Assembly (NCBI GenBank): GCA_964599885.1
Contig: CAZRHH010000010.1
Location: forward strand, 2,507-66,506
Direction of reading: 5' to 3'
Length of the DNA stretch: 64,000 nt
Origin: an uncultured Dehalococcoidia bacterium
GTDB lineage: Bacteria > Chloroflexota > Dehalococcoidia > DSTF01 > JACRBR01
The translations under genes and the position numbers were made by a program. Under the pieces are notes generated by a model. That model saw only the letters and a list, made by a program, of their open reading frames with translations. It was not told where the DNA came from and searched no databases. Below are positions 9,772 through 44,484 of the stretch, piece by piece. Position 1 is the stretch's first letter. Each line of letters opens with the position of its first letter.

Positions 9772-10248
9772 TCAACCCCGCACGCGCTGGCGGTACTGGA
9801 TTGCCTCCGCAAGATGCGCCGAAGCGATGTCGTCGGCGCCGGACATGTCGGCGATCGTCCGCGCCAGCTTCAACACGCGATGAAACGCCCGCGCCGAAAG
9901 CGACAACTGCGCCATCGCCAGCCGCAAGAGTGATTGCGCCTGCTCGTCGAGCCGCGCCTGGCAGAATTCGCGCACTTCTGTCGGCGACATCTCCGCGTTG
10001 CACGTGTACCGCGTACAGGCGAACCGGCGCGTCTGCACCGCGCGCGACGCCTCCACCCGCTCCCGCACTTCCGCCGACGATTCGCCGACCGCGTTCGATG
10101 CCAGCTTCTCGTACTCCACGCGCGGCACTTCAACGAAGATGTCGATCCGGTCGAGCAACGGCCCTGAGATCCGCTTCTGGTACCGGCTCACCGTGGACTC
10201 TGAACATGAGCACTCCTTCGTTGGGTCGCCGTAGTACCCGCACGGGCA
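9772..10248 (-). pseudogene. comM: comM (YifB/Mg-chelatase-like ATPase), 3' fragment separated from its 5' part by the element
   Basis: CPCGYYGDPTKECSC..RYQKRISGPLLDRIDI ... LSARAFHRVLKLARTIAD..HLAEAIQYR. Confidence 0.95.
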
Positions 10249-10260
10249 TCCGTGCAGGTA
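10234..10260. repeat. Left attachment junction: 13-bp repeat GTACCCGCACGGG (10234-10246) inside the palindrome TACCCGCACGG-GCAT-CCGTGCAGGTA
   Basis: Same 13-mer at 44450-44462; 11-bp inverted arms with one mismatch centred on CA at 10247-10248. Confidence 0.85.
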
Positions 10261-10294
10261 AGAACTACACCAGGTTGGAGCGTGTGGTGCGGCT

Positions 10295-12928
10295 TTGACG
10301 GCGGGGCGCTCGACCATGCTGGAGAGCGTGATCGACGCTCTCCGCGGCGTCAAGGGCCCGGACCGCGCCGGTTGGTGGACCGCGCACTGCCCGCTCCACG
10401 TCGATCGCAAGCCAAGCCTGCGATTCACGTCGACCGGCTTCGAGTGCATGGGTTGCGGGGAGAAGGGCCACATCGCGCTACTCGCCGCCAAGCTCGGCGT
10501 CGCTGAAGAGAAGCATCGGCCTTTCGACGCGCGCGTACAGGCGACCTACGACTACGTCGACGAGGACGGCCGGCTGCTCTTTCAGTCGGTGCGGCTTCGC
10601 GATCCAAAAGACTTTCGACAGCGCCGACCAGATGGTTCGGGCGGTTGGATCTGGAACCTCAACGGCGTCCGGCGCGCGCTCTACCGGCTGCCAGAAGTGC
10701 TGTCGGCGGCGGCAGACGAGGCCCTTTTTGTCGTAGAAGGCGAGAAGGACGCGAATCGTCTCTGGGCGGAAGGCCTGCCTGCAACCACGAACGCCGGCGG
10801 GGCCGGCAAATGGCTGTCCGAGTACAGCGAGTCACTGCGCGGTAGCACGGCGGTGATCATCCCCGACAACGACGACGCCGGCCGTGGGCACGCCGAACAG
10901 GTTGCACGATCCGGTGATGGTGTCGCCGCGGAAGTGCGTGTGCTTACGCTGCCGAACCTACCGGAGAAGGGCGACGTCAGCGACTGGTTCGATGCCGGCG
11001 GCACCGCCGCCGAGCTGCTACAGCTCGCCGCCGAAACGGCCGTCTTCGTCCCCGATTGTGATGGGCAAGGCGACGCATCCGTCACCGGCACCGGGCAGCA
11101 GCCGACGATCGTCGTCAGCGACCGTCATCTCCACGACATCGCCGCCGACGGCTGGCTCGCGCTGCAGCGTGCCAACGTCCCGGTTCGATCCTTCGTTCAC
11201 GGCCTCGACGTGGCTGAGGTCGTTCGAGACGCGGGCGGACGTTGCTCGATCAAGCACATGGGCGTCGCGGCCCTGCGCGGTCGGTTGGACCGCTGCGCAG
11301 ACTGGCAGCGGGAGGCGAAGGGCGGTCTCGCTCCGGCGCGGCCGCCCAAAGATGTCGTCGAAGACATGCTCGCACTCGAGAAGCCGTTACCGCCGCTCAA
11401 GGGCATCGTCGGAACGCCGATGTTCGCGGACGACGGTTCACTCGACTGCACGCCCGGCTATCAGCCGACGACGCATCTCTATTACGAACCCACAGGCGAA
11501 GCGATCCCGGCTGTGCCGCCCACGCCCGACGCCACCGACCTCATGCGCGCCAAAGCGTATCTGCGCCAGGAGTGGCTCGCGGACTTTCCGTTCCTGGACG
11601 ACGCGTCCTTCGCGCACGCGGTCTCGATAGCGCTCACCGTGATGGCCCGCGAGATGATCCACGGGCCGACACCGCTCTTCGCCGTCGACGCGCCCGCGCC
11701 GGGCAGCGGCAAGGGGTTGCTGTGCTCCAGCGTCGGCATCATCGTCTCCGGTCGCGAGGCCGCAGTCATGACCGAGACGCGGGGCGAGGAAGAGAGGAAG
11801 CGGATCACCGCGCTGGTCCGCGCCGGTCATCCTCTGTTGTTGCTGGACAACGTGAAACGAAAGCTGGAATCAGGCACGTTCGCAGCCATGCTGACCGCCC
11901 CGTTCTGGTCCGACCGCATCCTCGGCGCTACGCAAGACGTCGAACTCCCCGTGCGCGGTGTTTGGATGGCGACGGGCAACAACTTGCAATTCGACAGCGA
12001 CATCAGCCGGCGTGTGGTGTGGATCAGGATCGACGCACGTGTCGATCGTCCATGGGAACGTTCGGAGTTCCGCAAGGGGAATCTTCTGGAGTGGGTCGGT
12101 CGCCACCGCCACGAGTTGGTGTGGTCTTGCCTGGTGCTCATCCAGAACTGGATCGCCGCGGGCCGACCGCTGTGGCAAGGACGTCCACTCGGCTCCTTCG
12201 AGTCCTGGTGCAACGTGATCGGTGGCGTCCTTGAGGCGGCCGGCATCGCAGGCTTCCTCGAGAACCGGGGCGAACTCTACAGCCGTGCCGACGCAGAGAC
12301 CGAGGAATGGCGCACCTTCGTGCGCCAGTGGCAGGCGGCGTTCGGCGATACGCCCATCAAGGCGGCCGAAGTCCTCAGCATCGCGAAGGAGCTCCTGCCA
12401 TCGGTCTTTGAGCGCGTGAGAGACAACGCATCGGATCGGGCGCTCCTCACGCGTTTGGGCATAGCACTGAAGCAACGCGTCGACCGATCGTTCGACGGCT
12501 TATTCATCCGCCGGGCCGGCGCAGACCACCACGACGGCGGCACGCTGTGGCGGCTGGATTGCGGAACCTTCAATGGATCAGATGCCTCAGCATCAGCAGA
12601 GGTTCCGCAAGATAAGTGGTCAACTCCAGATACGTTTGCGGAAGCTGCGGAACCTGCGGAACCTGTTTTGGGGGTCGATGCAACTTTTGACGATCAACCC
12701 CCAACAGAACACGGAGTGTTTCCGACCCCGAAAAAGCATCCGCAGGTTCCGCAGCTTCCGCACGTAGATTCAAATTCAACCGATTTCGGCGCGGAACCTT
12801 TGCGGAAGGTTGACGTCTCTACGACCAAGGTTCCGCAGGAGCGTCCTCGCTGCGGCCGCTGCCGTATGCCGATGAGCGTCGCCCGAGTTGATGACGTCTG
12901 CGGCTTGTGCAAGCAGGTGGCGCGATGA
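10295..12928 (+). CDS. Primase-helicase (Zn-binding + Toprim + P-loop NTPase), replication initiator of the element
   Basis: HCPLH...CMGC zinc motif; YDYVDEDG..VRLRDPKDFRQ; VVEGEKDA, PDND..G and KGDVSDW (Toprim); APGSGKG Walker A; LLLDN Walker B; alternative ATG at 10316. Confidence 0.88.
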   Translation: MTAGRSTMLESVIDALRGVKGPDRAGWWTAHCPLHVDRKPSLRFTSTGFECMGCGEKGHIALLAAKLGVAEEKHRPFDARVQATYDYVDEDGRLLFQSVRLRDPKDFRQRRPDGSGGWIWNLNGVRRALYRLPEVLSAAADEALFVVEGEKDANRLWAEGLPATTNAGGAGKWLSEYSESLRGSTAVIIPDNDDAGRGHAEQVARSGDGVAAEVRVLTLPNLPEKGDVSDWFDAGGTAAELLQLAAETAVFVPDCDGQGDASVTGTGQQPTIVVSDRHLHDIAADGWLALQRANVPVRSFVHGLDVAEVVRDAGGRCSIKHMGVAALRGRLDRCADWQREAKGGLAPARPPKDVVEDMLALEKPLPPLKGIVGTPMFADDGSLDCTPGYQPTTHLYYEPTGEAIPAVPPTPDATDLMRAKAYLRQEWLADFPFLDDASFAHAVSIALTVMAREMIHGPTPLFAVDAPAPGSGKGLLCSSVGIIVSGREAAVMTETRGEEERKRITALVRAGHPLLLLDNVKRKLESGTFAAMLTAPFWSDRILGATQDVELPVRGVWMATGNNLQFDSDISRRVVWIRIDARVDRPWERSEFRKGNLLEWVGRHRHELVWSCLVLIQNWIAAGRPLWQGRPLGSFESWCNVIGGVLEAAGIAGFLENRGELYSRADAETEEWRTFVRQWQAAFGDTPIKAAEVLSIAKELLPSVFERVRDNASDRALLTRLGIALKQRVDRSFDGLFIRRAGADHHDGGTLWRLDCGTFNGSDASASAEVPQDKWSTPDTFAEAAEPAEPVLGVDATFDDQPPTEHGVFPTPKKHPQVPQLPHVDSNSTDFGAEPLRKVDVSTTKVPQERPRCGRCRMPMSVARVDDVCGLCKQVAR
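12561..12836. repeat. Cluster of 9-bp GCGGAACCT-like repeats in both orientations (candidate iteron origin)
   Basis: Forward at 12561, 12638/12647/12656 (tandem), 12791, 12802; reverse at 12600, 12735/12744/12753 (tandem), 12828. Confidence 0.75.
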
Positions 12929-12964: not shown

Positions 12965-14209
12965 ATGACGAAGATGATCACCGCCGCACCCCTCCAGATC
13001 GAGCACGTTGCGATCGACGAACTGAAGCCCGACCCGGCCAACCCGCGCCGGATCTCCGACGCCGAACTAGAGTCGCTCACGCGCAGCCTGCGCGAGTATG
13101 GGTTCGTGCAGCCCGTGCTCGCGCGGCGTGAAGACAAGACGGTCATCGGCGGCCACCAGCGGCTGCTGGCGGCGCGGCGCCTCGGGATGAAGACCGTGCC
13201 CGTGACGTACCTCGACGTGACGATCGAGCAAGCGCGTGTCCTCAACCTCGCCCTCAACAAGATCAGCGGCTCGTGGGATCAGGAGCTGCTCGCCCGACTG
13301 GTGGCTGACCTCGCCGGCGTGGCCGACCTGGACATCACGCTCTCCGGCTTCGCGGAGGACGAACTCGACCAGTTGCTCAAGTCGCTCGACGTGCGCGAGA
13401 AGCGGGAGAAGGTCGAGGCCTTCGACGTCGAGGCGGCGCTTGAGGCCGCACGCGCGGCCACACGCGCCCAACCGGGCGACCTGTGGGCGATGGGCGACCA
13501 CCGGCTGCTGGTCGGCGACGCTGGCGACGCGGCGGCGGTGACGCGGCTGCTCGATGGCAAGCGTCCGGCGATGGCGTTCACCGACCCGCCCTACAACGTG
13601 GCCTACGGCGATCACGGCGGCCAGCAGCAGGGACAGCGCAAGCGGCGCATCCAGAACGACGCGATGCCGCGCGATCAGTTCGAGACGTTCTGTCGCGGCT
13701 GGGTGCGCAACCTCCTGGAACACGTCGACGGCGCGATCTACTGCTGCATGTCGAGCAAGGAACTGCCGCTCGTCTCGCGCGTGTTCGAAGAAGAAGGCGG
13801 TCACTGGAGCGACACGGTCATCTGGCGCAAAGACCGCTTCACGCTCGGACGCGCGGACTACCAGCGGCAGTACGAGCCGATCTGGTTCGGCTGGCGCGAA
13901 GGCGCGAAACACCAGTGGCACGGCGGCCGCAACCAGGGCGACGTGTGGGACGTGGACCGTCCGTCCGACAGCGACGCGCACCCAACGATGAAGCCGCTCG
14001 CGCTCGTCGAGAAGGCGATCGAGAACTCGTCCTCCTCCGGTGACATCGTGCTCGACCTCTTTCTGGGTTCGGGCTCGACGCTGATCGCCGCGGAGCGTAC
14101 CGGCCGCGTCTGCTACGGCACCGAACTCGACCCGCACTATGGCAGCGTCGTGTTGGCGCGCTGGGAGTCTTTTGCAGGGAAGGTCGCGGAATGCCTCAGC
14201 CGTTCGTGA
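12965..14209 (+). CDS. ParB/Srx-like domain fused to N6A/N4C DNA methyltransferase (beta class)
   Basis: LKPDPANPRRI..GFVQPV..GGHQRL (ParB-N); FTDPPYN precedes HPTMKP and DLFLGSGST. Confidence 0.92.
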   Translation: MTKMITAAPLQIEHVAIDELKPDPANPRRISDAELESLTRSLREYGFVQPVLARREDKTVIGGHQRLLAARRLGMKTVPVTYLDVTIEQARVLNLALNKISGSWDQELLARLVADLAGVADLDITLSGFAEDELDQLLKSLDVREKREKVEAFDVEAALEAARAATRAQPGDLWAMGDHRLLVGDAGDAAAVTRLLDGKRPAMAFTDPPYNVAYGDHGGQQQGQRKRRIQNDAMPRDQFETFCRGWVRNLLEHVDGAIYCCMSSKELPLVSRVFEEEGGHWSDTVIWRKDRFTLGRADYQRQYEPIWFGWREGAKHQWHGGRNQGDVWDVDRPSDSDAHPTMKPLALVEKAIENSSSSGDIVLDLFLGSGSTLIAAERTGRVCYGTELDPHYGSVVLARWESFAGKVAECLSRS

Positions 14210-14391
14210 TCACGAAGGACCCGCGCGGCCCGCAGATGCACGTCCGCCGGCGCGACGACGTCGCCTGCGTCGGCTGCATCGAGGTCGGGCTGTTCGCGAT
14301 CGTGCAAGCGGTGATCGAGGAAGAGGCAGCGGCCTCGGCTGGGGAGGGCACACCAACCGAGGCCGCTAGAGAGGCGATGGTAGCACGATGA
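14206..14391 (+). CDS. Small hypothetical protein
   Basis: GTG overlaps the MTase stop (GTGA); CxxC motif. Confidence 0.35.
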   Translation: MITKDPRGPQMHVRRRDDVACVGCIEVGLFAIVQAVIEEEAAASAGEGTPTEAAREAMVAR

Positions 14392-14414
14392 GGCTGCGTT
14401 GCGTTTATCCGGCG

Positions 14415-14813
14415 TCAATCACTGGCCACGACGCGCCCGTCGATGCCGACCGCCGCATCGCCGAACAGGATCGCCGCCCAGGCCTCGGCGTCGGCGCGGT
14501 TACTGCCGAACGTCGTGCAATGCTCGGCGCAATGGCGGACGAGGGCGAGCCGACCCTCGGCGCTGTCGGGAAACGCCGGCGTGATCGGCGTGCCCTCGCT
14601 GACGGCTTCGTACGCGGCGACCTCGCATTGATCAGCCGTCAAGCCTTCGGTGGTCGGCATCGTGCCCCCGCATTCGGCGCGGTGGGCGTCGCTGTCGAAG
14701 ACGTAGTTCGCCGGCAGCAGCGGCTCGTGCCGCCCGCGATCGTCTCTCGGGTGCTGCCAGCCTTTCGGGAATCGCCGCACCTCGCGGCCTCCGACGGAGT
14801 AGAACTCGCTCAT
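14415..14813 (-). CDS. Hypothetical phage-like protein
   Basis: AAGGAG RBS before ATG 14813; GREVRRFPKGWQHP ... YEAVSEGTPITPAF. Confidence 0.65.
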   Translation of the reverse strand: MSEFYSVGGREVRRFPKGWQHPRDDRGRHEPLLPANYVFDSDAHRAECGGTMPTTEGLTADQCEVAAYEAVSEGTPITPAFPDSAEGRLALVRHCAEHCTTFGSNRADAEAWAAILFGDAAVGIDGRVVASD

Positions 14814-14826
14814 CTGATTCTCCTTT

Positions 14827-14945
14827 CGCCACCATACATCACTCTGGCGAACGCACGAGTCAACGCCTCGCCGGCCGGAGTTTCGAGTGTTAACGAACTG
14901 ACACACCCGTTGACTTCGCTCCGCACCGGAGTGATGTATGGCGGC
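14827..14945. promoter_or_regulatory. Back-to-back duplicated promoter motif CGTTGACT-N10-CC-R-GAGTGATGTATGG-Y-GGC
   Basis: Minus copy 14827-14865 and plus copy 14908-14945 with identical spacing; each precedes an RBS and ATG. Confidence 0.6.
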
Positions 14946-14991
14946 ACCAACGAGACGGCCTCAGACGAGGCCCAGCGAGAGGAGCGGCGCG

Positions 14992-15435
14992 ATGCCGATC
15001 GAGAACAGGAATCTGGAGCCAGGGACCGTGCTGGTGGCGCGGCACAAGAAGGCGGAGCACCGCTGCGAGGTGGTGCAGACGGACGCGGGGCTGCGCTACC
15101 GCCTGACGGACGGCAAGGAGTTCAACAGCCCGTCGTCGGCGGGACGGGAGATCACCGGCGGCGTTGCGGTGAACGGCTGGCGGTTCTGGAGCCTCGAAGG
15201 CGACCTGAAGCCGCGCGCGGCCAAGACGGCGAAGCCCAAGGCAGAAAAGACCGCCACCAAGAAGGCGCCAGCGAAGAAGGCCAGCGGCAAGAAGAAGGGC
15301 GCGAAGAAGCCGGCCGCGAAGAAGGCGGCACGGGCGGCGAGCCGCGGTTCGTACGGGTGCGGCGTGTGCGGCGACGAGTTCCCGACGATGAAGGCCGCGA
15401 CCGACCACGCGACGGAAGCGCACATCGCCAACTAA
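14992..15435 (+). CDS. RAMA/DUF2924-like domain + Lys/Ala-rich histone-like tract + C2H2 finger
   Basis: GTVLVARHK..GKEFNSPSSAGREITGG..NGWRFW; PAKK/AAKK repeats; CGVC-x12-H-x4-H; GAGGAG RBS. Confidence 0.65.
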   Translation: MPIENRNLEPGTVLVARHKKAEHRCEVVQTDAGLRYRLTDGKEFNSPSSAGREITGGVAVNGWRFWSLEGDLKPRAAKTAKPKAEKTATKKAPAKKASGKKKGAKKPAAKKAARAASRGSYGCGVCGDEFPTMKAATDHATEAHIAN

Positions 15436-15452
15436 CCCTCGCCTTGGATCGC

Positions 15453-15482
15453 GCAGCGGGTCGCTTCGGCGGCTCGCTGTCG
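15453..15482 (+). terminator. Hairpin terminator candidate
   Basis: GCAGCGGGTCGC-TTCG-GCGGCTCGCTGT after the stop at 15435. Confidence 0.55.
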
Positions 15483-15565
15483 TTGTGTCTCGTCGGTGCT
15501 CGTCGGACGCACACGATGGCAAGATCGTGTGGACTACCAACCGCGGTGACTAGCAGAGGTAATCA

Positions 15566-15967
15566 ATGGTAGTCTCGCGCACCTGCAGGGAGATTCGATC
15601 AAACGGCGAGCCGTGTCGCGCCGCTCCCCTGCGCGACAGCAATTTCTGCCTGTGGCACGACCCCGAACAGGCCGACGTCGTCGCCGAAGCGCGGCGTCTG
15701 GGCGGCGTCCGCAGGAAGCGAGAGACGACGCTCGCCGGCGCCTACGAGATCGAAGGTCTTGGCTCGGTGAGCGAGATTCGCCGGATTGTCGAGATCGCGG
15801 TGCTGGACGCGCTCAGCCTCGACAACAGCGTCGCCCGCGGCCGTCTGCTCGTAGCCTGTGCGCTGGCCGGCGCCAAGCTTCTCGAAGTCGGTGAGTTGGA
15901 GCAGCGGTTGGAAGCGGTGGAGGGCGCGCTCAAGCCGCGTCTCGTCAAGACGGTCGGTCGACGATGA
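15566..15967 (+). CDS. Hypothetical protein with N-terminal C-x9-C-x10-C-x2-H zinc knuckle (HGGxSTG/DUF5763-like)
   Basis: RTCREIRSNGEPCRAAPLRDSNFCLWHDP. Confidence 0.6.
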   Translation: MVVSRTCREIRSNGEPCRAAPLRDSNFCLWHDPEQADVVAEARRLGGVRRKRETTLAGAYEIEGLGSVSEIRRIVEIAVLDALSLDNSVARGRLLVACALAGAKLLEVGELEQRLEAVEGALKPRLVKTVGRR

Positions 15968-17070
15968 GCGGCGCAGAGAAGCGACTCGATCGATTGCTGC
16001 CGGCGCTCAGCGCGAAGGAGCGTGCGATCCTCATGCTCCGCGACTTCAAGGCGGACAAGACGCAGGAGCGCCAGTTGATCCGCTCTGCGCCCGACGCGCA
16101 GGCGCTCGAACTCAACCGCCTCATTGGCTTAATGAACGCCGCCAACGGCGACCTCGCCCATGTGCTCCTCGTCATCCGCGAGCGAGCGCGGCTGGAGGAG
16201 GTGCGCTTCAGCTGGTTGCAATGGGCGCGGATGTGCGCGCTCGAGATGTGGGGCGTCCGGGCACACTTCCTCACCAGCGGGAAGGACGCGATCACCGAGA
16301 GCGATTATCGCGAGCGCGAGGCAGAAGCACGCGGCGAGCTGCTGTCGCTCGACGAGTGCGCGACGATCTATGCGGAGGATTACCACATCTGGGACGAAGC
16401 GGACTACACGACGGACGAGAAGAGCGGGGAACAGTTCCCCACGGACGAGGCCTGGTTCCGGGTGCGCAACCAGAAGGCCAAGGAGTTGCACGCGCTCGTT
16501 GCGGCCGGCGCGCTTCCCGGCAAAGGGAAGGGCAAGCGCCTGAAGATCGCTTGCGGGGCGTTCTACGACTGGCTCGGCCAGCCGGTGCCGGTCGCACCCG
16601 ACTTCGGCATCGAGTTCGACGTCCAGCCCGATCATCGCGAACGGGAGGTGGGGCGGTCGCACCGCGAACACGAGTTCATCCGGGACATCCTCGATCGTGG
16701 CGCATTCAACGTGGAGCTACCGCTCGACATGACGTCATCGCTCGTCATGTCACGGCCCAACGGTCGGTTCGGCGTCGAGCTGGCGCGCGTCGTCGCCGTC
16801 ATCATCCGCACTGGCGTGCAGGAGAACTGGCGGCAGCTGCGCGCGATCGAGGAACAGATTGACGCGATCACGGAAGAGTACGACGGTGAGGATGTGCTGC
16901 ATGAGCGGATGCGGGGATGTCTGGAAGACGCGAAAGCCACGCTCGTCGATGTCCACAAAGATCTGCAGGCGTACACGGGACCGTTCGATCTACCGGAACC
17001 GGATGAGGATCTGCGATCTACGATCCAGCGCATCGTCGATAGAGAGGTCCAGCACGTTCCGACGCTCTAG
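15964..17070 (+). CDS. Hypothetical helical protein (element backbone)
   Basis: 368-aa ORF with ATGA overlap to the upstream gene; natural amino-acid composition. Confidence 0.7.
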   Translation: MSGAEKRLDRLLPALSAKERAILMLRDFKADKTQERQLIRSAPDAQALELNRLIGLMNAANGDLAHVLLVIRERARLEEVRFSWLQWARMCALEMWGVRAHFLTSGKDAITESDYREREAEARGELLSLDECATIYAEDYHIWDEADYTTDEKSGEQFPTDEAWFRVRNQKAKELHALVAAGALPGKGKGKRLKIACGAFYDWLGQPVPVAPDFGIEFDVQPDHREREVGRSHREHEFIRDILDRGAFNVELPLDMTSSLVMSRPNGRFGVELARVVAVIIRTGVQENWRQLRAIEEQIDAITEEYDGEDVLHERMRGCLEDAKATLVDVHKDLQAYTGPFDLPEPDEDLRSTIQRIVDREVQHVPTL

Positions 17071-17421
17071 CGACGCACACCATCGAACCATCGTGTGGCG
17101 CGATCTTGTAGGATCGGCGTAGCAGGACTACCACGAAGGCGCTCGTGTGATCCTCGTCCTGTTGTCCGGCACCTACGTCTGTTTCGATAGCCTGCGCGCG
17201 GGCGAGACGCTCCTCGAGGCGAAACGCCCCGACGCCGCGCGGATCGTGCTATGGCAACGAGAACCGCCGCAGTCAAGATCAATGGCACCCGTACAGGCCG
17301 CCAGTATCGTTTGGTGACGATGGTCTCCGCTTCCAAACGAAGGTCAGCGTCGACTGCTGCGTGCTCGCTGACGGCTACGACGAGACGTGGACGCGCAATC
17401 ATGATTGGGGAAGGAATAGAA

Positions 17422-18429: not shown

Positions 18430-18454
18430 GCTTGAAATCCGCACCATGTGGACA

Positions 18455-19689: not shown

Positions 19690-19700
19690 CGGCAAGCCAA

Positions 19701-34854: not shown

Positions 34855-34975
34855 AGCCGCCTTTGACTCCATTGCTCTGAGCCCATCGCCGACACCTTTC
34901 ATCCTCCGGGTTGGCTCGCTATTGAATACTCGCAGTTGCGGGTGTACGATCGCGGCCACCTTGAAGGGGGAGCCA

Positions 34976-35671: not shown

Positions 35672-35712
35672 TACGACCTCGGGCTTGGTGATCGGAATAC
35701 GCAAGGCGGCCG

Positions 35713-35967: not shown

Positions 35968-36151
35968 CTCCAGACGACCACTGCACTATGTGGCGATCGT
36001 GCGTAGCTCCGCACAGCGGTGCGTGACCATGTTGGTCGCCACTCTGTGCCACAAGCCTCTTGACAACTCGCTGACGCAGTAGTATCTTCGCCACACATCC
36101 CCGCAAGGACTCACGGATTGAGCGAGACCGACTTCGCACGGAGGCGTTGCT

Positions 36152-39100
36152 GTGTACATTTTTCGCTGGCTCGTCCTCTGGTCCGTAGTCGGAATCGCCA
36201 TCGCATCTCCGGCCTGGTTCGACCGGGACCAACCGGGCCTAGTCCGGCAGATCGCGGATGTGCGAGCTGCGCTCGCGCAGGAAGTAGTCCCGACCTCGAG
36301 CCCCGCCGTCGCGCCGACGCCGACTCCAGCGGCGGCTGGGTTAGCATCGCCAACGTCGGATGTTCAGCCGGAGCCAACTCTCACGTTCACATCGACTGCC
36401 ATGGCTACCGCCACCACCCTCGCTACTGAGACCCCCACGAGCGATCTCCCCGTCGAAAGCGAAACCGGTACGGCCACGGCGACGCCGACGGCGGTTGAAA
36501 GCGTCACGCCCACGCCCACGATCGCCGCGACTCCCACGGCGATCTCGGAAGTGGTCATCGACAGCACCGGCGGCGCTCTGAGCAGCCCGGATGGGCACGC
36601 CACGCTGACGTTTCCGCCTGGGGCTACGGACGAACCGCTGCGCATTACTGTCCGTCCCGCTGATCCTCTCGACGCCGAACCACTACCGGAATCTGAACTG
36701 CTCACGCTTTGGCAGTTCGATGCAGTCGCGGTGAACAGAGGTGACGCGGCGATACACACGTTCAGCGCCGACGTCACGATCGATCTTCGATACGACCGCG
36801 ATGAACTCTTCGGCCTCAGCGAATCGGTTATCCGGTACTGGTACTTCGATGAAGCGCTCGACGCTTGGATTGAGGTGCCGACGACTCCGGTAGCGCCATA
36901 TCACTGGCAGGTGAAGGTAAACCACTTCAGCGCCGCTGCCGCGAGCAGCGATGGTGCAATCGTTGTTCCGCCCATTCTCGAGTCGGCGCAGGTAGATTTG
37001 AATGCGGGAGCCGCCGTCTTCAGCTATCCCCTCCTGCCGTCCCCGGGCGTGGCGGGACTAGAGCCGTCGCTGAACCTCAATTACAGTTCGGCCCGCGTCG
37101 ACGATACGGACCAGAAAGTCGTAGCGCCGTGGACTGGTATTGGCTGGGATCTGGCAATGCCCTCGATCACTCGATCCGGCGAGCGCTTCTTCCTCAACTT
37201 GGGAGGTGTGGGCAGCGAGATCGTCAAGACGGGCGTTGCGACCGAATGGGTTACGCGCAACCAACAGTTCATGCGCATCACACACAGTTCCGCTTGCGAC
37301 GATGGAGGTTGGAGCCAATCGAGCTCCGTGGCGTTTGTTGCCGACACCTATCAATGCGCTTGGACTGTTAAAGACCAGTCAGGTCGGACATACGCGTTTG
37401 GCGGTGATGCTCAGAGCCGTCGGTACTATGGCTCGCTGCAGAATTTCGCATTCAGCGGCTTCAGGCACTACCAGTGGGATCTTTCATCCGTCACCGACGT
37501 CCACGGGAATGCCGCGATTTACAAGTACAACCAGGTACGGGGCCGTTCGCAGATGTCATGGCCGGATATCTTTCCCGAGAGCTGGATGTCATGGGTCATC
37601 TCGTCGTATCCAACGGAAGTCTTGTACCCAGGCGGGAAGGTCATCTTCACGCTGGAGGACGGCCTGATTGATTACAGTTCAACTTCATCGAGCTATTTGG
37701 CGGACGATGGAACCACCCTGCAGGTCCGTGCCGATGTAGCCCCGTGCATCTCTGGCAACTTTCAATTCGTCTTTGAAACACGTGCATTGGCGAAAGTCGA
37801 GATGCAAAGCTGGGACGCGGCGGGACTCTTTCACAGCCGCGCCTACGAGTTCGATGTCGATTCTTCGTCGTCTCCGCGTTGCGAGGACGCAACTAGGCTG
37901 GACTCGGTCAAACTGGCGGGCCGCGACGGCGGGTTCATGCCAGCGTCGAGTTTCGCGTACACCGATTACACCACCTGCAGTGGTGTGTCGACCCGGACGC
38001 GTGCTCGTCTGAGCACCATCCTGAACGGGTTTGGCGGGAGCGTGGTGTTCGCACCGTACATCAAGAAGACCTCGACCTCCTGCGCGAGGGACAGGTTCGT
38101 CCCCCAGCGGCGCACCGTGAAGGCGGGTACCTACTGGTCACCGTACAGTCCGGACGTCGTCACGGACTATGACTTCCAAGGTGGGCCGACCTGGGGGCCG
38201 GACGGATACCGTGGGTTCAGCAACGTCACGGAGACAGACGCAGTCGGCAACCGCAACGTGCATACGTTCGTCGTGTGGGGCGAACTGGCGGGACGCGAGC
38301 TAAGGGTTGAGCGATATGGAACCGAATCGCCCACCAATCTGCTTTGGCAACGCGTCGAAAACGCGTACGAATCGACGGCCGCCAACTTCATTGACGTCTT
38401 TGGCACACCGACGGCGAACGCGTTCCACAACAAGCTCACGAGCACGACCACGACGACGAAGGACGGGAACAGGAGCCGCGTCGCCTATGCTTACGACCCA
38501 ACGCACGGCGGCATCACGAGTGTCACTGAAGACGCGAGTGTCGATTTTCCCTACACGGATAGCTGCCGCAAGCGTACGACGTCCTACTATCCCACCCCGA
38601 GCGACGTGCTCCTCATCGTTCCGCAGGCAAAGCAGGTTTTAACGACGTGCGCCGCAAGTCCGGGGATCGCCGCCGAAACACGCTTTTTCTACGACGGTAC
38701 GTCCGGTGGGCCGCGGACTGCGAGCAACGGGGGCCGGGGGAATCTCACGGCGACGCGATCGTTGGTCGATCCTAGCCTCGCGGAAAGTAACGTCGAAAAA
38801 TACGTCTGGACGCTCCAGAGCTACAGCACCACGGGGTTGCTCAAGGAGCTGTCAGTACCGGCGTACGACAATTCGACGTTGCCCCTCCCGGCTGGCGCGG
38901 GCGGCGCCGTTTGGAGCAACAAGGGTCGAACGGTCTACACATACGACGCCGGCTCGGTTTCCGGTGGCAACGCAGGACACGGCCGGTTCGTCTCGTCCGA
39001 AACAACGTACGCCTACGATCCCAGCGGATTGCCCGCGTACATCCCGGCGTTCACAACGAACTTGACCTACGACCGTCGACTTGGCACCGCTACGTCGGTT

Positions 39101-42100
39101 ACCGAGCCGAACGGCCTCACATCCACAACAGAATACGACGAATTTGGTCGCACGGTGAAACGCTACCAAACTCCGGATACCTCGACGTTCCCGACAACCG
39201 AGTTCGAGTACGACTGGTCTGGCGCCGGTTCCGGAGGAGGAACGAACAGCACGACGGTAAAGCACCGCATGATCCAGGGATCATCAACGACTGTAGACGA
39301 GAAGGTGTGTACGGACGGACTCGGACGCGCGAGTCAAACGATCACCCCGTTGGGGTCGTCGCTGCCGAGCGTCTACGAAACTGTACGCTATGACGCGCGT
39401 GGGCTGCCGTGGGCCTCGGGGCCCGCCACTGACTACAATTTCGACTGCACATCCCCCCTGTCCGCAATGACGTCGCCAACCACCCTGCGCGAGTACGACG
39501 CATCCAATCAGATCGAGAAGACCACGTTCGCAGGAAGTTCGTCCGTCACATCGTGTGCCCCATCCTGTACGAAGGTCGTGCGAGACGGTCTTTGGACGAC
39601 GGCGTACGACGAGCTCGGACACAAGACGCTAACGACGCGCGATGGCTTCGGGCAGCCGTACATCATCTACGAGTACTTCGGCACAGGGACGCCGCAAGAC
39701 CCGCATTCAGCGGTCGTTGCAACAACCTACGACTACGATGTTCTGGGCAATGTAACCAAAGTCACGGACGGACTGGGAAATTCCACCGTGATGACCTACG
39801 ACGCGCTCTCCCGGAGGAAGACCCTGGACGACCCGGACATGTCCGGCGGCGGGAAGGCGTGGAAGTACAAATACGATGCCGCGGGCAATCTCGTCCAACA
39901 GGAGGACGCACGATCCAGTTCCATCAATCCAGATGATCGCGTTCGGACGACGCTGTCATATGACTCATTGAATCGAATCCGCACCAAGTCCTATTCAGTG
40001 CCTACGGGGGCGGGCGGCCTTACATGCCCCGCCGCAGCATGCGTCCCGAACCCTGGCGCCATCGAGTACTTCTACGACCGGTATATCATCGCAAGTCAAA
40101 ACAGGTGCTTTGGATACGCGGCGAATACAGCGATCGGGAAACTCACGAGAATGACCGACGGCAGCGGCCAGACCCGTTGGTGCTATGACATTCGGGGGCG
40201 CGAAACTCGCTCTCACTACACCGTAAACCATCCGGAGTGTTTGACCGGCCACATTGCGACGACGAAGTACATCCACCATTCATACGACTCAGGGAACCGA
40301 GTGCAGACCCTCATGTATCCGGACGGCGAAAGCTTGACCTACACCTACGATGACGGGGCGGACGGGAGCGGTAGGCTGAAGGGTATTCAGAGCAGCCTCG
40401 GCGTGAGCTACGCTGACAATATCTCGTATCACGCAAGCGGCGGTCCGTCGGCACTACCACTCGGAAACGGATACACCACGAATTACTCGTACGATTCCCG
40501 TCACCGGCTCAGCGGAATCACTACCGGAAACGGCACGACGACTGTGCAGGACCTCGACTACGAGTACTACGAGGACGGTAACATCGCGCGGTTGAACGAT
40601 GTTGGCGTCGAGGACGCCTGGTTCAAGTACGATTCGCTCTCGCGCCTCACCGAAATGCGCAAGGACAGCCTGTCCGGTCAGCTGCTTGCTTCCTACCAGT
40701 ACAGCTCTGGCGCCGACGACGACCGCCGCGCATTAGTGAGCAAGCAGGAGGGGGCAAACGTCGTCGCGCTAACGTATGGTGACGCGAACCATGTTCACGC
40801 TCCCTCGTCCGCGAACGGACAGTTGATCGGGTACGACGCGAACGGAAATATCTCTGTCCGAACCGGCAACGAACAGTTCCTCTTCGATGCGGCGAATCGT
40901 CTGACACGCATGGCCCATGTCACGGGCTGGCCGAATTTTAGGCTCCAAACCGACTACACCCACGATGGTCAAGGACGTGTCACACGCCAACGCGTTACGT
41001 CACCGTCCCTCCCAAACATCGATAGCAAGAAAACGTCGATCGGTGGAATCTATGAGGAACAAAATACCGCTTGCGATGCGCCGCTCGACAGTCAGAAATA
41101 CTACTACGCCCTGGGGCGGCTAATCGGTTGGCGCTACACGTCAAACGGCGCCTCAACCCTGCAGTATCTCCTTACCGATCACCTCGACAGCACGGTCGGT
41201 CGCATCGATAGCACGAGTGGCGCCTTCACGAAGATGAGCTACTGGCCGTTCGGTGCGTCGCGCGGGCATGGATATTTCGGGCGTGAATTCACCGGACAGC
41301 GAAACGAGAGCGGGTTCGCGATCGGCGCGTACAACTACAACGCGCGGTTCTACTCGACGACGCTCGGGACGTTCTTATCGGCTGATCCGCTCACGGTCGA
41401 TGGGCTGAATCGGTACGCTTACGTGCGGAACAATCCGCTGCGGTACAACGATCCGAGTGGACTCTGTACGGGCGGCGAGATGGTGATCTTGTGGAACTGC
41501 GCGACTGGCAAGGCGGCGGAATATAAGGCGGGCGACGTAACGCCTGTGCCACTTGGCTGCAACTCCGTCTGCGCAGCGGAAACCCAGCACAGTTATGCGA
41601 TGGCCGAAGGCATGCGCGCAGGCGCCGCATACGCGGAGCTCAAGGCGGCGATGGAGTACGGCGCCTACCGAAACGCTATGTATGCGTTGGCGTGGCCCGG
41701 ATCCCAATCCATCGCGGACGGAAACGCGATCGCGTACGCTAACAAGCCGTCTCCGGCGAAGGACGGAGGGAGCGTGGGGGACAAGTTCAAGGACTGGGGA
41801 AGCAAGGTACTTGAGGTCGAAACCCTCGTTGAGAACGTGGTTATTAGCGCAGGTTCCGAGATCCCGTACGGGCAATATTACGTGAGCTACTACGGCATGG
41901 AAGCTATCCATGACCTTCCAGCGCCTGCGCAAGCAGTCGTCCTTCCGGAAGTAAGACTCGCGCTTGTTGTCAACCAGGCAATCGGACTTGGCGTGACGGA
42001 GACGCTCGACTACTATCGCGCAGCCCGCTTCGGGCGGGATCGGCACGAAGACCGATACGCACCAATCTGGGGCAATCACACCGACGGTCAGCTGCGCGAA

Positions 42101-42181
42101 TTGGGTGTACCACTGCCGGGTTGGGAAATGTACTTTCCCGGTAGCCATGCGGACGGCTCTTATGACTTCGCCTGCTGCTAG
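36152..42181 (+). CDS. RHS/YD-repeat polymorphic toxin-like protein (signal, PT linker, ZU5-like, SpvB/TcB-like, RHS core, variable tip)
   Basis: IDSTGGALSSPDG..FPPGA, VNHFS; PSLNLNYSS..GIGWDL; YRGFSNVTETD; many YD repeats; YNARFY..GTFLSADP..NRYAYVRNNPLRYNDPSG. Confidence 0.92.
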   Translation: MYIFRWLVLWSVVGIAIASPAWFDRDQPGLVRQIADVRAALAQEVVPTSSPAVAPTPTPAAAGLASPTSDVQPEPTLTFTSTAMATATTLATETPTSDLPVESETGTATATPTAVESVTPTPTIAATPTAISEVVIDSTGGALSSPDGHATLTFPPGATDEPLRITVRPADPLDAEPLPESELLTLWQFDAVAVNRGDAAIHTFSADVTIDLRYDRDELFGLSESVIRYWYFDEALDAWIEVPTTPVAPYHWQVKVNHFSAAAASSDGAIVVPPILESAQVDLNAGAAVFSYPLLPSPGVAGLEPSLNLNYSSARVDDTDQKVVAPWTGIGWDLAMPSITRSGERFFLNLGGVGSEIVKTGVATEWVTRNQQFMRITHSSACDDGGWSQSSSVAFVADTYQCAWTVKDQSGRTYAFGGDAQSRRYYGSLQNFAFSGFRHYQWDLSSVTDVHGNAAIYKYNQVRGRSQMSWPDIFPESWMSWVISSYPTEVLYPGGKVIFTLEDGLIDYSSTSSSYLADDGTTLQVRADVAPCISGNFQFVFETRALAKVEMQSWDAAGLFHSRAYEFDVDSSSSPRCEDATRLDSVKLAGRDGGFMPASSFAYTDYTTCSGVSTRTRARLSTILNGFGGSVVFAPYIKKTSTSCARDRFVPQRRTVKAGTYWSPYSPDVVTDYDFQGGPTWGPDGYRGFSNVTETDAVGNRNVHTFVVWGELAGRELRVERYGTESPTNLLWQRVENAYESTAANFIDVFGTPTANAFHNKLTSTTTTTKDGNRSRVAYAYDPTHGGITSVTEDASVDFPYTDSCRKRTTSYYPTPSDVLLIVPQAKQVLTTCAASPGIAAETRFFYDGTSGGPRTASNGGRGNLTATRSLVDPSLAESNVEKYVWTLQSYSTTGLLKELSVPAYDNSTLPLPAGAGGAVWSNKGRTVYTYDAGSVSGGNAGHGRFVSSETTYAYDPSGLPAYIPAFTTNLTYDRRLGTATSVTEPNGLTSTTEYDEFGRTVKRYQTPDTSTFPTTEFEYDWSGAGSGGGTNSTTVKHRMIQGSSTTVDEKVCTDGLGRASQTITPLGSSLPSVYETVRYDARGLPWASGPATDYNFDCTSPLSAMTSPTTLREYDASNQIEKTTFAGSSSVTSCAPSCTKVVRDGLWTTAYDELGHKTLTTRDGFGQPYIIYEYFGTGTPQDPHSAVVATTYDYDVLGNVTKVTDGLGNSTVMTYDALSRRKTLDDPDMSGGGKAWKYKYDAAGNLVQQEDARSSSINPDDRVRTTLSYDSLNRIRTKSYSVPTGAGGLTCPAAACVPNPGAIEYFYDRYIIASQNRCFGYAANTAIGKLTRMTDGSGQTRWCYDIRGRETRSHYTVNHPECLTGHIATTKYIHHSYDSGNRVQTLMYPDGESLTYTYDDGADGSGRLKGIQSSLGVSYADNISYHASGGPSALPLGNGYTTNYSYDSRHRLSGITTGNGTTTVQDLDYEYYEDGNIARLNDVGVEDAWFKYDSLSRLTEMRKDSLSGQLLASYQYSSGADDDRRALVSKQEGANVVALTYGDANHVHAPSSANGQLIGYDANGNISVRTGNEQFLFDAANRLTRMAHVTGWPNFRLQTDYTHDGQGRVTRQRVTSPSLPNIDSKKTSIGGIYEEQNTACDAPLDSQKYYYALGRLIGWRYTSNGASTLQYLLTDHLDSTVGRIDSTSGAFTKMSYWPFGASRGHGYFGREFTGQRNESGFAIGAYNYNARFYSTTLGTFLSADPLTVDGLNRYAYVRNNPLRYNDPSGLCTGGEMVILWNCATGKAAEYKAGDVTPVPLGCNSVCAAETQHSYAMAEGMRAGAAYAELKAAMEYGAYRNAMYALAWPGSQSIADGNAIAYANKPSPAKDGGSVGDKFKDWGSKVLEVETLVENVVISAGSEIPYGQYYVSYYGMEAIHDLPAPAQAVVLPEVRLALVVNQAIGLGVTETLDYYRAARFGRDRHEDRYAPIWGNHTDGQLRELGVPLPGWEMYFPGSHADGSYDFACC

Positions 42182-42208
42182 CGTAAAAAACGTCGGAGAT
42201 GTGGTGCC

Positions 42209-42577
42209 ATGATGCCCGCGGCAGTGCCGAGCTTTGTAATCGTCGTGGTGCTGGCGTTGATGGCGGCGAGCTGTCGGGAGGGAAGCGTGACATCCGTACA
42301 AATCGAAAATGACACGGAGGAGATAGTAACGGTTCGTTCCTGCGGCCGCGCTCCTTGGGATTACGTGCTCGGGCGGAGCGTATGCGACGTCGTCCATCGT
42401 CCAAAGAGGATCGACCCTGGTGCAGTTCTTGATATTCGGGTGACCAACCGCATCACAACGTGGTTTGTCGTCGAGGAAGACGGGCGCCGGGTGGGATGCC
42501 TTCGTTTGAGGTTCGACGAGCACTCAGAAATGATCGAGCAGGTCGCTGTGAGCGCGTTCGTCATCTGCCCAAGCTGA
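42209..42577 (+). CDS. Small lipoprotein, candidate immunity protein of the RHS toxin
   Basis: 27 bp downstream of RHS; hydrophobic signal ending LMAASC; GGAG RBS. Confidence 0.55.
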   Translation: MMPAAVPSFVIVVVLALMAASCREGSVTSVQIENDTEEIVTVRSCGRAPWDYVLGRSVCDVVHRPKRIDPGAVLDIRVTNRITTWFVVEEDGRRVGCLRLRFDEHSEMIEQVAVSAFVICPS

Positions 42578-42685
42578 GCGAGCATCGTCTATCGACAACA
42601 CGGCAACATCGCCCCCTAATCGCCCAGGGGTAGCACATTAGTTCTTGCCGTCATACAATGGCTCCACCCTCGAACGGAGCCATGC

Positions 42686-42892
42686 ATGCGAAAGCACCGC
42701 AGCCTCACGCTAACCAAGTTCGTCGCTGTCATTTCGCCCCGGTCTGATACGACGTTACTTGACCTCGTTGAATCCCTTGAATCCTCCCAGCCCGTGGGGG
42801 GAGTTCAACGGTCACGCGTTGGAAAGCTACCTCGCCCGACCCGAGAACGCGACGGTCTCGGCGCTCGTGCACGCTGACTTCGATCGCATTGC
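42686..42892 (+). pseudogene. Frameshifted duplicate of the 5' end of the 42965-44086 gene
   Basis: MRKHRSLTLTKFVAVIS vs MTVHRSLTLAKFVSVIS; FNGHALESYLARPENA vs LNGEALEAFLGRPENA; DFDRI vs DFRRI. Confidence 0.8.
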
Positions 42893-42964
42893 CTCAGCGG
42901 GGCTCTTCGTCCGTTGCTCCGCACAACGGGACACAGGCGCATTCGCGGACTCGGAGGACATTGG

Positions 42965-44086
42965 ATGACCGTGCATCGCAGCCTGACGCTCGCGAAGTTC
43001 GTCTCGGTCATTTCCCACGACGTGCTACAGCGGTACTTCGCTCGCCTTAACCTGGTCAACAAGCCGGAAGGGTGGGAAACGCTCAACGGTGAAGCCTTAG
43101 AAGCGTTTCTCGGCCGACCCGAGAACGCTGATGCCGACAGCATTATTCGTGAGGACTTTCGAAGAATTAACGACGTGTCCGAGACAGCGATGGGCGTCGT
43201 GTTCCGCGCCTATGAGAAATACAACATCCCGTATCCTGCGGACCGCACCGCTGAGGAGAACGCGTTCCGTCTTTTCCTCGACTACCCGAAGGCTTTTGCG
43301 TTCACGTGGAGCCGCTATCTCCTCTTTCAGTCCGGGTCGCGATTGAGCGTACATTTGATTGAGCGCCGAGAGTTCACTGTCGAGGAACACGGACTCAAGG
43401 AATTCGAGGCAGGCGTCCGGAAGTGGTACGAGGAGCAAGGCAAGGGCAGTCACGTACAAATTACTCCCTACGAGGATCAAGGCGAGGACATCCTTTTGAT
43501 CCGGCGTGGCAACTACATGAAGGCGCTTACGCACTGGAACGATGAAGGAGACGACATCGATGTAAGCCCGTTGCGGATCGCGACAGAAGATGTCGTGGTC
43601 TACGAGCGCGACACGGGCTTGCTCAAGATTAAGACGCCCTTTCCCCGCGATCGATTGGAATACGTTCGACTGTTTGCGGCATGCATCGTAGGAGAAGAGG
43701 GCGTCGCCGAGTCGGCGGTGAACAGCGAGGTATTCACGCTCACACCGATACAAGACGGAACGTTTCGCTTCGAGGGAGCCGGGCCGGTGATTCGGGTGGA
43801 ACTGAAGAGCGCGCGTATCAAACTGTACGGACTCACGAATCCGACGATACAGATACGTGCGTCGGATGTACTCGCTGCGCTGAAATACGACCTTGGTTCA
43901 CTCGGTCTGGATGCCGGCGTACTTCTCAGCGTCGGGATGAAGTTCCACATCCTCCGTCCAGGGACGAAGAAGGTGGTCCCGCGCGCGTTCACGATCACGC
44001 CGCCCTCCCATACAAACCTGCCTGATCGCATCGACAACGACGTGATCTTGCAGTTTCTTCGAGACCAGGGGATCAAGCTGCGGTGA
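42965..44086 (+). CDS. Hypothetical protein (373 aa), probably element backbone
   Basis: GGAGGA RBS; EDVVVYERDTGLLKI, FTLTPI, FLRDQGI; no recognisable catalytic motif. Confidence 0.75.
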   Translation: MTVHRSLTLAKFVSVISHDVLQRYFARLNLVNKPEGWETLNGEALEAFLGRPENADADSIIREDFRRINDVSETAMGVVFRAYEKYNIPYPADRTAEENAFRLFLDYPKAFAFTWSRYLLFQSGSRLSVHLIERREFTVEEHGLKEFEAGVRKWYEEQGKGSHVQITPYEDQGEDILLIRRGNYMKALTHWNDEGDDIDVSPLRIATEDVVVYERDTGLLKIKTPFPRDRLEYVRLFAACIVGEEGVAESAVNSEVFTLTPIQDGTFRFEGAGPVIRVELKSARIKLYGLTNPTIQIRASDVLAALKYDLGSLGLDAGVLLSVGMKFHILRPGTKKVVPRAFTITPPSHTNLPDRIDNDVILQFLRDQGIKLR

Positions 44087-44484
44087 TCGAGTGGTTGCTC
44101 GCGCGTGTTGAGAAGAACCCTCACTCAACATTCACTAACAGTGAGCTATTGCAGCTAACTTCTCAGGCCATGGAAGCGCTGGGCGCGCCGGGGAGTTTTC
44201 GGCGTGTTCCGATCGAGCCCGAGTGTGCCGAGATCACATGGCGGGACGGGCGCACGCTAACTGTGATGGTCACCGAAGACGGCATGGAGGCGTTCGACGA
44301 GAGAGATCCGGACTTTGAACCCGTAGCCGTTGACATGGCGGATCTCGAATCTTGGCAGTTCGACCTCCTTGCCTTCGCGAAAGTAGTTCAAAGTCCGAAT
44401 GGGCTTGTTGGCGAACCGGCGCTGATCCACGAGCGGATTGTATTCGCCGGTACCCGCACGGGTTCTGCGCGCAGACGAGCATGA
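44083..44484 (+). CDS. Hypothetical protein interrupted by the right junction
   Basis: GTGA overlap with the upstream gene; the last ~9 codons are antisense comM. Confidence 0.65.
44450..44462. repeat. Right attachment junction, 13-bp repeat GTACCCGCACGGG
   Basis: Identical to 10234-10246; comM 5' half begins here. Confidence 0.85.

Follow-up and report, generated by a model that had tools for sequence, protein, structure and literature searches.

A decayed comM-integrated island points to a Chloroflexota element family whose attachment site appears to split a recombinase-replication gene pair

The window, a stretch of 64,000 nucleotides from an uncultured Dehalococcoidia bacterium (contig C10, positions 2507-66506, of the source genome G000), carries a 34.2-kb insert that cuts the minus-strand gene comM in two. 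The insert is probably a decayed, immobilised member of a phage- or satellite-like family of Chloroflexota elements that target comM through a large serine recombinase (LSR), and whose own attachment site, attP, would split an LSR-replication gene pair. G000 is a metagenome-assembled genome of 161 contigs, 90.6% complete; other G and L labels denote the genomes and loci of relatives. The principal features, from left to right, are as follows.

9772..10246, minus strand: comM 3′ fragment, the C-terminal 157 codons, ending in the comM-side arm of the left attachment site, attL (Pfam; 65-85% identity to the comM of relatives)
10221..10272, plus strand: attL, composed of the comM-side arm, a putative crossover CA at 10247-10248 and the element-side P′ arm at 10249-10272 (conserved in relatives)
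10248..10298, plus strand: orphaned 3′ tail of the lost recombinase gene, 16 codons and TGA, with a TTGA overlap with the primase start (homologous tails)
10295..12928, plus strand: primase-helicase of 877 codons with a CHC2 zinc finger, primase core and helicase part, likely start TTG 10295 (Pfam, NCBIfam, PHROG)
32221..33156, plus strand: Xer-like tyrosine recombinase, a conserved gene of the family (Pfam, NCBIfam)
42965..44086, plus strand: gene A, 373 amino acids (aa), an unnamed family with an RdgC/CENP-N-like predicted fold (homologues of 367-390 aa)
44083..44484, plus strand: gene B remnant, residues 1 to ~124, homology ending at 44451 (six full-length homologues aligned)
44449..44462, no strand: non-canonical right junction, without the P arm and without one 6-base unit of the comM tandem repeat (against 8 canonical right attachment sites, attR)
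44459..45541, minus strand: comM 5′ fragment (Pfam ChlI and Mg_chelatase; 63-86% identity to relatives)

An exact 13-base repeat at 10234-10246 and 44450-44462, with no third copy in the window, marks the two ends of the insert. Pfam assigns ChlI and Mg_chelatase to the right-hand piece of comM and the end of Mg_chelatase plus Mg_chelatase_C to the left-hand piece; the ComM domain set (ChlI N domain, AAA+ core, Mg_chelatase_C) is complete but spread over two fragments. The GC skew is ~0 within 10-45 kb and negative in the flanks on either side. The original prediction, made from the sequence alone, had described the co-oriented genes and an open reading frame (ORF 44083, here the gene B remnant) that runs into the right junction, and all of its sequence statements hold. 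It had also proposed that excision restores comM. The two pieces, once joined, do form a single open frame of 517 codons, but excising one repeat copy leaves comM reading N-P-C-G-Y, 6 bases short of the N-P-C-P-C-G site that all 18 uninterrupted comM genes among the relatives carry (once as the variant N-P-C-Q-C-G).

Insertion at this coding site recurs among relatives. A set of 30 comM 3′ loci, the window's own and 29 from relatives of the same family or order, comprises 18 uninterrupted genes, 7 carrying the P′ arm of the family and 5 that were not resolved. The carriers are the window's own locus, G415, G421, G432, G340, G407 and G418, the last identical in place and coordinates to G403. 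Base for base, the window attL aligns with those of G401, G402, G403, G415, G421, G432, G340 and G407, and the insert lies, as in these relatives, at the N-P-C-P-C-G coding site with its P′ arm on the comM 3′ side. G403 and G340 bear a second comM interruption near codon 200 (G403 C30/C36, L033:14200-20500; G340:C24:14751-24356), with an AAA_25 protein and a phage capsid protein encoded beyond the second break in G403, and comM seems to be a recurrent target in this order.

Comparison with the best-resolved relatives reveals what the window copy has lost. These are G401, a complete chromosome with a comM element of ~39 kb; G402, with an element of ~43.6 kb on one contig; and G403, whose element has its right end in L033 and its left end in L046. 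In all three, an LSR of 520-549 aa (Resolvase, Recombinase and Zn_ribbon_recom domains) ends exactly at the comM 5′ junction, co-oriented with the preceding genes (in G401 and G403, these are Xer, A and B). An LSR was also located at the comM 5′ junction of G415, G407, G432 and G340 by tblastn, giving 7 of 7 recovered right junctions of related comM elements, G421 being left out because its contig stops 64 bases past the junction. Mutual identity among the LSRs is only 36-41%, and the G415 frame is disturbed near its 3′ end. At the comM 5′ junction of the window there is no LSR; a search of its own genome found no orthologue in G000, where tblastn returned only a 25-29% identical serine recombinase on contig C120. 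On these comparisons, the window copy is a derivative of the family that has lost its LSR.

Other family features are retained. The left ends of G401, G402 and G403 are collinear, running from the comM 3′ fragment through the P′ arm to a replication gene ~50 bases in, a ParB-methylase gene and homologues of the window genes at 15566 and 15964; the window has this same module, with its replication gene ~50 bases from the crossover, the ParB-methyltransferase and both downstream genes. Xer copies of 58-80% identity occur in 7 relatives and in L098, a viral-collection contig, 1.4-3.7 kb upstream of the LSR, and the window retains its own copy. This Xer-like gene was considered as the comM integrase and rejected: relatives carry Xer besides an LSR abutting the junction. 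G401, G403 and L098 have both A and B, G415 and G407 have only B, and with these queries neither gene turned up in G402, G432 and G340. G401 holds a second Xer-A-B trio (B full-length, 374 aa) at locus L031, ~100 kb from its comM element, with a PrimPol gene and then a short ParB-N gene behind it; no comM or LSR is nearby, so Xer-A-B also travels in other contexts. A low-GC prophage fragment, L133 (IMGVR_UViG_3300023707_000208), encodes a distant LSR of 29% identity whose end abuts comM-junction-like sequence at the contig end, and comM-targeting LSRs may therefore exist outside Chloroflexota.

The lost gene left a trace at the opposite end of the island. When the ends of intact relatives are joined, the LSR frame continues over attP for 16-17 codons, homologous to a tail that survives in the window. 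There, the frame of ORF 44083 carried across the joint reads 16 codons (10248-10295) to a TGA at 10296-10298 that overlaps the primase TTG at 10295. As had been cautioned beforehand, an open run of this length is by itself expected by chance, since 0.71 of the 17-codon windows of the element are open; chance is ruled out by the phase and the overlap. Across nine elements (the window, G401, G402, G403, G415, G421, G432, G340 and L098), the tail is open and ends in a TGA overlapping the start of the first gene (NTGA) in all nine, the start being GTG in five, TTG in three and ATG in one. Seven of the nine tails share a Q-N-Y core, in which the window and G432 have K or I instead of Q; behind the core comes a hydrophobic-x-R-V-V-x-hydrophobic end, and a 3-base insertion in the G403 tail keeps the phase. 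The first gene behind the tail varies, with at least four unrelated types represented: CHC2 primase-helicase, Toprim with AAA_25, PrimPol plus a helicase part, and D5_N helicase.

Scanning metagenome contigs with the P′ arm motif yielded 25 loci, 17 with comM upstream (integrated), 3 with an LSR upstream (unintegrated) and 5 with neither. Of these, 23 were scorable, two being cut by contig ends, and 18 show NTGA with ATG, GTG or TTG. The same phase and the same NTGA in 9/9 elements and 18/23 loci indicate that the in-frame continuation is inherited, not fortuitous. Among 17 distinct 17-codon tails, the entropies at codon positions 1/2/3 are 0.71/0.44/1.21 for codons 9-16, where variation falls mostly on third positions, a coding signature, and 0.13/0.57/0.23 for codons 1-8, which fits a recombinase-binding arm. 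In the integrated LSR, the tail is swapped for 3-9 comM-encoded residues; the LSR C-termini thus differ between states in G401, G402, G403, G432 and G340, and the reading frame is contiguous in L098.

The overlap depends on where the primase begins. TTG 10295 is its likely start because homologues in G340, L184 and L195 also have the N-terminal residues encoded ahead of the internal ATG 10316; ATG 10316 was rejected as the start, as homology to these three begins right behind the overlapping start codon. The original prediction gave ~46 bp from left junction to primase; from crossover to replication gene, the distance is ~47 bases.

Unintegrated forms display the undivided arrangement directly. 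L098, a contig of 10,609 bases with all genes on one strand, bears an intact inverted-repeat attP in the LSR 3′ end and reads as follows.

22-951: Xer
1460-2566: HTH/ImmA-like gene
2816-3919: gene A
3916-4815: gene B, 299 aa
5045-6664: LSR, 539 aa
6661-8880: PrimPol-D5 helicase, in GTGA overlap with the LSR stop
9172-9645: small terminase subunit (TerS)
from 9645: ParB-methyltransferase

L197 and L200 likewise carry an LSR immediately upstream of the P′ arm, and the third unintegrated locus, L179, is part of L098. The circular order that had been predicted, from 42965 through 44083 to the primase and the ParB-methyltransferase, is seen in L098, except that the LSR, not the 44083-like gene, crosses attP. 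A phage-like contig, L113 (IMGVR_UViG_3300013772_000519), encodes a ParB-methylase, small and large terminase subunits and a related LSR, then PrimPol and AAA_25; this contig may connect the island family to complete phages.

ORF 44083 is, by alignment with its homologues, a stump comprising the first third of a longer gene. Homologues of B were gathered by tblastn beside gene A homologues and by profile search. At five loci reached through gene A, B directly follows A and measures 301-408 aa, and full-length homologues of 299-408 aa occur in L031, L032, L033, L034, L036, G401 and L098. The profile search recovered 652 cluster representatives at E 0.001 or better; among the 149 listed besides the window's own (median 304), 123 reach at least 280 aa, 14 lie at 200-279 aa and 12 fall below that. 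The family is ~290-400 aa at full length, and the window copy keeps only residues 1 to ~124. After the stump, ORF 44083 continues in frame for 11 bases resembling an LSR end or the comM arm and then for 22 bases of antisense comM. A word-indexed protein search with ORF 44083 matched only itself, and the C-terminal part of B is absent from all G000 contigs (tblastn).

A and B fall outside known replication families. The gene A model (pLDDT 78.8) gave Foldseek matches to RdgC and CENP-N at E 1.5e-5 to 8e-4 and TM 0.30-0.50, among them CENP-N at E 1.5e-5 and RdgC at E 2.4e-4 with TM 0.30-0.43; a search of its sequence against solved structures gave nothing below E 0.08. The model of a full-length B (m8655e8e5e166, pLDDT 90.3) contains, behind an N-terminal domain, a nuclease-like, PD-(D/E)xK-like fold at 94-207 (VIA Z 5.6-6.5, middling) and an OmpR-type winged helix at 232-346 (VIA Z 7.0-7.9, middling), and Foldseek found no match to it in the PDB at E 0.001 or better. 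No PADLOC defence-system model matched A, B or Xer.

These comparisons bear on the reading first given to the island, which takes ORF 44083 for the genuine final gene ahead of attP and the window element for an excision-competent switch that reconnects 42965-44083 with the primase. Its frame does cross the joint and end on the primase start, and 42965, 44083, the primase and the ParB-methylase are co-oriented. Nevertheless, the ORF is a truncated third of its family; an LSR stands between the 44083-like gene and comM in 7/7 relatives, with no LSR orthologue found in G000; the right junction lacks the P arm and 6 core bases; and the sole recombinase of the island is the Xer-like gene, 11 kb from the end, which relatives have in addition to the LSR. 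We therefore consider this reading very improbable. What crosses attP in intact elements is the LSR gene, not 44083. The original prediction had itself named a secondary deletion as another possible cause of the truncation and a longer 44083-like gene followed by a recombinase before the attachment site as its mark; G401, G403 and L098 have exactly that arrangement, and the window, with 44083 truncated and the LSR lost, bears the deletion scar.

The attachment sites locate the loss. Joined ends form an inverted repeat, as does the natural attP of L098, centred on TG in the comM sense (CA on the window plus strand), and this central CA, at 10247-10248 and 44457-44458, would be the crossover dinucleotide. 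In 8 of 8 canonical attR sites, both units of the comM tandem CCNTGY-CCNTGY are kept and followed by the P arm, which is the last LSR codons. At the window right junction, a single CCNTGY unit is present, and beyond 11-13 bases the sequence is already that of gene B. Transposition with a target-site duplication was considered for the repeats and rejected, the left junction being a conserved recombinase site.

Two origins of the right junction can be envisaged. An internal deletion could have run from B codon ~125 to the last four LSR codons, with additional loss of one 6-base unit. Alternatively, illegitimate recombination between gene B and an empty comM, on a sister chromosome or incoming DNA, would have left 13 comM bases beside the B stump. 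The 13 bases of the junction equal the comM-side arm at attL at 13/13 positions, with a 6-base match two bases further upstream, and the P arms of G403, G401 and G402 deviate from them at 4 of the last 13 positions; the second route, however, calls for another DNA molecule and does not spare the loss of a 6-base repeat unit, and 11 of the bases also match the last LSR codons of G403, G407 and G421 at 8-9/11 positions, in the LSR frame. Recombination with an empty comM is a real possibility, if short of probable. By whichever route the junction arose, the window copy has lost both the LSR gene and the recombinase-binding arm.

The unusual junction is not an assembly artefact. Contigs of three runs of one sample were compared with the window, a comparison in which rare circular joints or empty sites are invisible. 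A chimeric junction in a genome that really holds an intact element might be imagined, given that the source is a metagenome-assembled genome of 161 contigs and that run X1 contigs break at 44456-44485. Yet a run X2 contig (record 14) spans 44142-46907 with zero differences, bridging the junction, and an X1 contig covers 33538-44485, although X1 and X2 come from one sample and hence are not fully independent. Contig depths of element and flank are equal (14.8 vs 14.4 and 6.5 vs 6.6), which also gives no sign of extra copies. A chimera is accordingly regarded as extremely improbable. No joint at 44462 and no loose end there occur among the contig joints and loose ends listed, and an exact 44-base query from the comM side of the junction had no matches in the metagenome contigs.

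The decayed-member reading, taken together with the intact relatives, gives the following cycle. By its sequences, the family integrates through its LSR at the N-P-C-P-C-G site of comM. Read through the joint, an intact element begins with Xer, an optional regulator, A, B and the LSR; beyond attP come the primase-helicase with its iteron origin, in some members a small terminase, then the ParB-methyltransferase and cargo. The 3′ end of the LSR gene contains attP, so that its final 16-17 codons and TGA fall beyond the crossover, with that TGA on the replication gene start. Integration gives the LSR a short comM-encoded tail and leaves the replication gene ~47 bases inside attL, with a ribosome-binding site present and no upstream gene. 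Excision rejoins the pair, and on the excised circle LSR and replication gene would be co-transcribed and translationally coupled, tying replication to excision. In the window, the deletion would have taken B from codon ~125, the whole LSR gene and the element-side attR arm, and fused the B stump in the LSR frame.

The earlier proposal of a working excision switch in the window accordingly fails, as the island lacks both the recombinase and the element-side attR arm. With LSR and P arm missing, the element is fixed in comM and the primase permanently cut off from its operon; the copy would not excise on its own and very probably not in trans either. What does stand from that proposal is that the attachment site cuts a co-oriented gene array, and that the open frame over the joint ends on the primase start and is conserved. 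In intact relatives, excision may switch replication on, as far as gene arrangement can indicate. The full form of this idea, in which only the excised circle expresses the recombinase with its conserved 16-17-residue tail and the replication protein, both from a single operon, and integration yields a tail-swapped recombinase and keeps replication off, could be correct, though we would not call it probable.

It is set against a plainer account, in which the architecture is real and has no regulatory role: the overlap is ordinary packing, attP lies by chance in the LSR 3′ end, and the replication gene has its own promoter in both states. Overlapping stop and start codons are frequent in compact phage genomes; a ribosome-binding-site-like motif precedes every replication gene (tail codons 11-14), making independent translation possible; and in L113 the related LSR, which crosses an attP-like site with a longer tail of 28 codons, stops 3 bases before a different next gene. 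On the other hand, just ~47 bases, mainly recombinase-binding arm, separate crossover and replication gene in every member, and the overlap has persisted through replacement of the replication gene by unrelated types. We regard the absence of any regulatory role as rather unlikely.

Several observations weigh against the decayed-member reading and the coupling attached to it. The consensus promoter scan was blank at the junction and upstream of gene A, the 60-66% GC of the sequence making the scan uninformative; scanning both junctions for promoters and terminators returned no promoter-like site, against chance expectations of 0.1 and 1.0. The sequencing runs listed as containing the stretch include no RNA run. 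A promoter may lie in the P′ arm, or read-through may arrive from the plus-strand genes at 7274-8784. Five of the 23 scorable P′ arm loci depart from the canonical overlap (1 CTGA, 3 without a stop in the stretch, 1 unrelated-looking), and many of the loci are near-duplicates, so that the counts overstate independence. Conservation of the tail is partly owed to the attP arm and to the ribosome-binding site of the replication gene. G000 is 90.6% complete, and the LSR may sit on an unassembled contig. Recombination with an empty comM accounts for the right junction no worse than an internal deletion in which the last LSR codons survived. Finally, the X1 contigs break at the junction with a 30-base overlap where X2 reads through; an empty comM site and a canonical attR both differ at base 44455, so either would give exactly this break, which may reflect a co-existing variant (an empty comM site or an intact element) in a population that is not uniform.

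The remaining features of the island are as follows.

12560..12845, no strand: candidate replication origin, at least 10 iterons of 8-9 bases in both orientations, in the primase gene 3′ end (repeat search)
12965..14209, plus strand: ParB-N/N6-N4 DNA methyltransferase fusion (Pfam, PHROG; 66-74% identity, syntenic in G401, G402, G403 and L098)
14388..17070, plus strand: three conserved genes of unknown function (14388-15572, 15566-15967, 15964-17070), syntenic after the ParB-methylase in G401, G402 and G403
17251..32149, no strand: cargo including DUF4238 and unknown genes (Pfam, PADLOC)
24500-31268, minus strand: type I restriction-modification system with an Abi_C gene between hsdR and hsdS (Pfam, PADLOC)
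31349-32149, minus strand: TIR-domain gene (Pfam, PADLOC)
33257..42968, no strand: insert of ~9.7 kb between Xer and A, with an ice-binding-like gene, an SNase/Excalibur gene, an RHS-repeat protein and small ORFs (Pfam)
36152-42181: RHS-repeat protein of 2009 aa with an SpvB-like N-terminal stretch (Pfam)

The iterons at 12560-12845 are TGCGGAAC-like and include two inverted triplets 52 bases apart. G401 and G402 have their own, different iterons at the equivalent place, and the region is likely a replication origin with element-specific iterons. The three genes at 14388-17070 gave zero family matches in Pfam, NCBIfam, PHROG and PADLOC. The TIR gene of G401 points the same way as Xer, A, B and LSR, and the window block 24500-32149 lies opposite to Xer; this block may be inverted. 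RHS-repeat genes likewise lie inside the G402 and G403 elements.

The ~9.7-kb insert separates two genes, Xer and A, that are adjacent in L031, L032 and L033. A partial copy of the Xer 3′ end at 34670-34849 matches 32972-33151 at 80% over 180 bases, and 42759-42968 (a 69-codon ORF) partially duplicates the A 5′ end, 42794-42850 matching 43072-43128 at 74% over 57 bases. The two copies bracket most of the cargo, the ice-binding-like gene lying between Xer and its copy, an arrangement that suggests either recombination of two related elements or insertion of a cassette.

Packaging genes are sparse. Neither capsid nor terminase matched in the window (Pfam, PHROG), in line with what had been reported from the sequence at the outset; TerS is encoded in G402, G403 and L098 and lacking in the window and G401, and no large terminase or capsid occurs in the stretches examined. 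With a replication gene and iterons in the window and TerS confined to those three relatives, the elements of the family may be phage satellites.

The window island itself is a fossil without an integrase, in which the switch cannot operate and comM is permanently broken. The corrected idea survives for the family, where the attP inside the recombinase gene is kept in dozens of elements despite exchange of the replication gene. A functional coupling would be a simple way of tying replication to excision and would provide a natural means of asking if directionality is influenced by the C-terminal tail of a serine integrase; if true, a widespread, undescribed Chloroflexota family builds its life cycle into its attachment site.

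Parts of this arrangement have precedents. The myxophage Mx8 uses a tyrosine integrase. Its attP lies within the integrase coding sequence, and its integration gives rise to a recombinant gene whose 3′ end is new (PMC6070905). The comM family, in which attP likewise lies inside the recombinase gene, shares this feature, and the window retains only the orphan tail at 10248-10298 and the B stump of it. The target in Mx8 is not comM, and the portion of that report at hand describes no stop/start coupling to a replication gene (PMC6070905). Mycobacteriophage BPs has its attP in the repressor gene; according to the part of the account drawn on here, integration shortens the repressor, removes a degradation tag and decides the state (PMC4557955). 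The products of the integrated and free forms differ at the C-terminus in both systems, but the split gene of BPs is the repressor, acting via a degradation tag as far as the same portion of that account goes, whereas the comM family splits its LSR with a proposed effect on the downstream replication gene.

Joint-dependent transcription is known from Tn916. In ICEKp1, ICEclc and ICEEc1, the joined ends put the promoter of one end before genes of the other, as the available text of the source has it (PMC13023037). Unlike the comM family, all four are conjugative elements with tyrosine integrases, the regulated genes are int or transfer genes, and no ORF runs across the joint.

Among LSR prophages, A118, in comK, and SPbeta combine an LSR and a short core with an insertion that disrupts a competence or sporulation gene. 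Insertion of A118 in comK is described in the consulted part of PMC3556126. The comM family resembles them in its LSR, short core and disrupted host gene and differs in target and phylum; no attP within an LSR frame coupled to a replication gene was found for such prophages in the literature searched.

SaPI-type satellites and phage-inducible chromosomal islands (PICIs) have a terminal integrase gene, a primase-helicase whose iteron origin lies within its gene or beside it, and TerS, and no capsid or large terminase. The terminal integrase, the primase-helicase with iterons and the TerS of G402, G403 and L098 recall this plan; in contrast, no helper phage, packaging or induction is known for the family, and the window copy is without TerS. 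The AbaR/Tn6022 islands of Acinetobacter also insert in comM. These are Tn7-like transposons with a 5-bp target duplication; unlike the family described here, they have no LSR and occupy another position within comM.

Searches of the open-access literature turned up no account of an LSR that has attP within its reading frame and is coupled to a replication gene, and none of Chloroflexota LSR elements specific to comM. As read from its genes, the comM LSR family would combine two ideas so far met in separate systems, an attP placed within a gene and expression that depends on the joint, in one serine-recombinase element.

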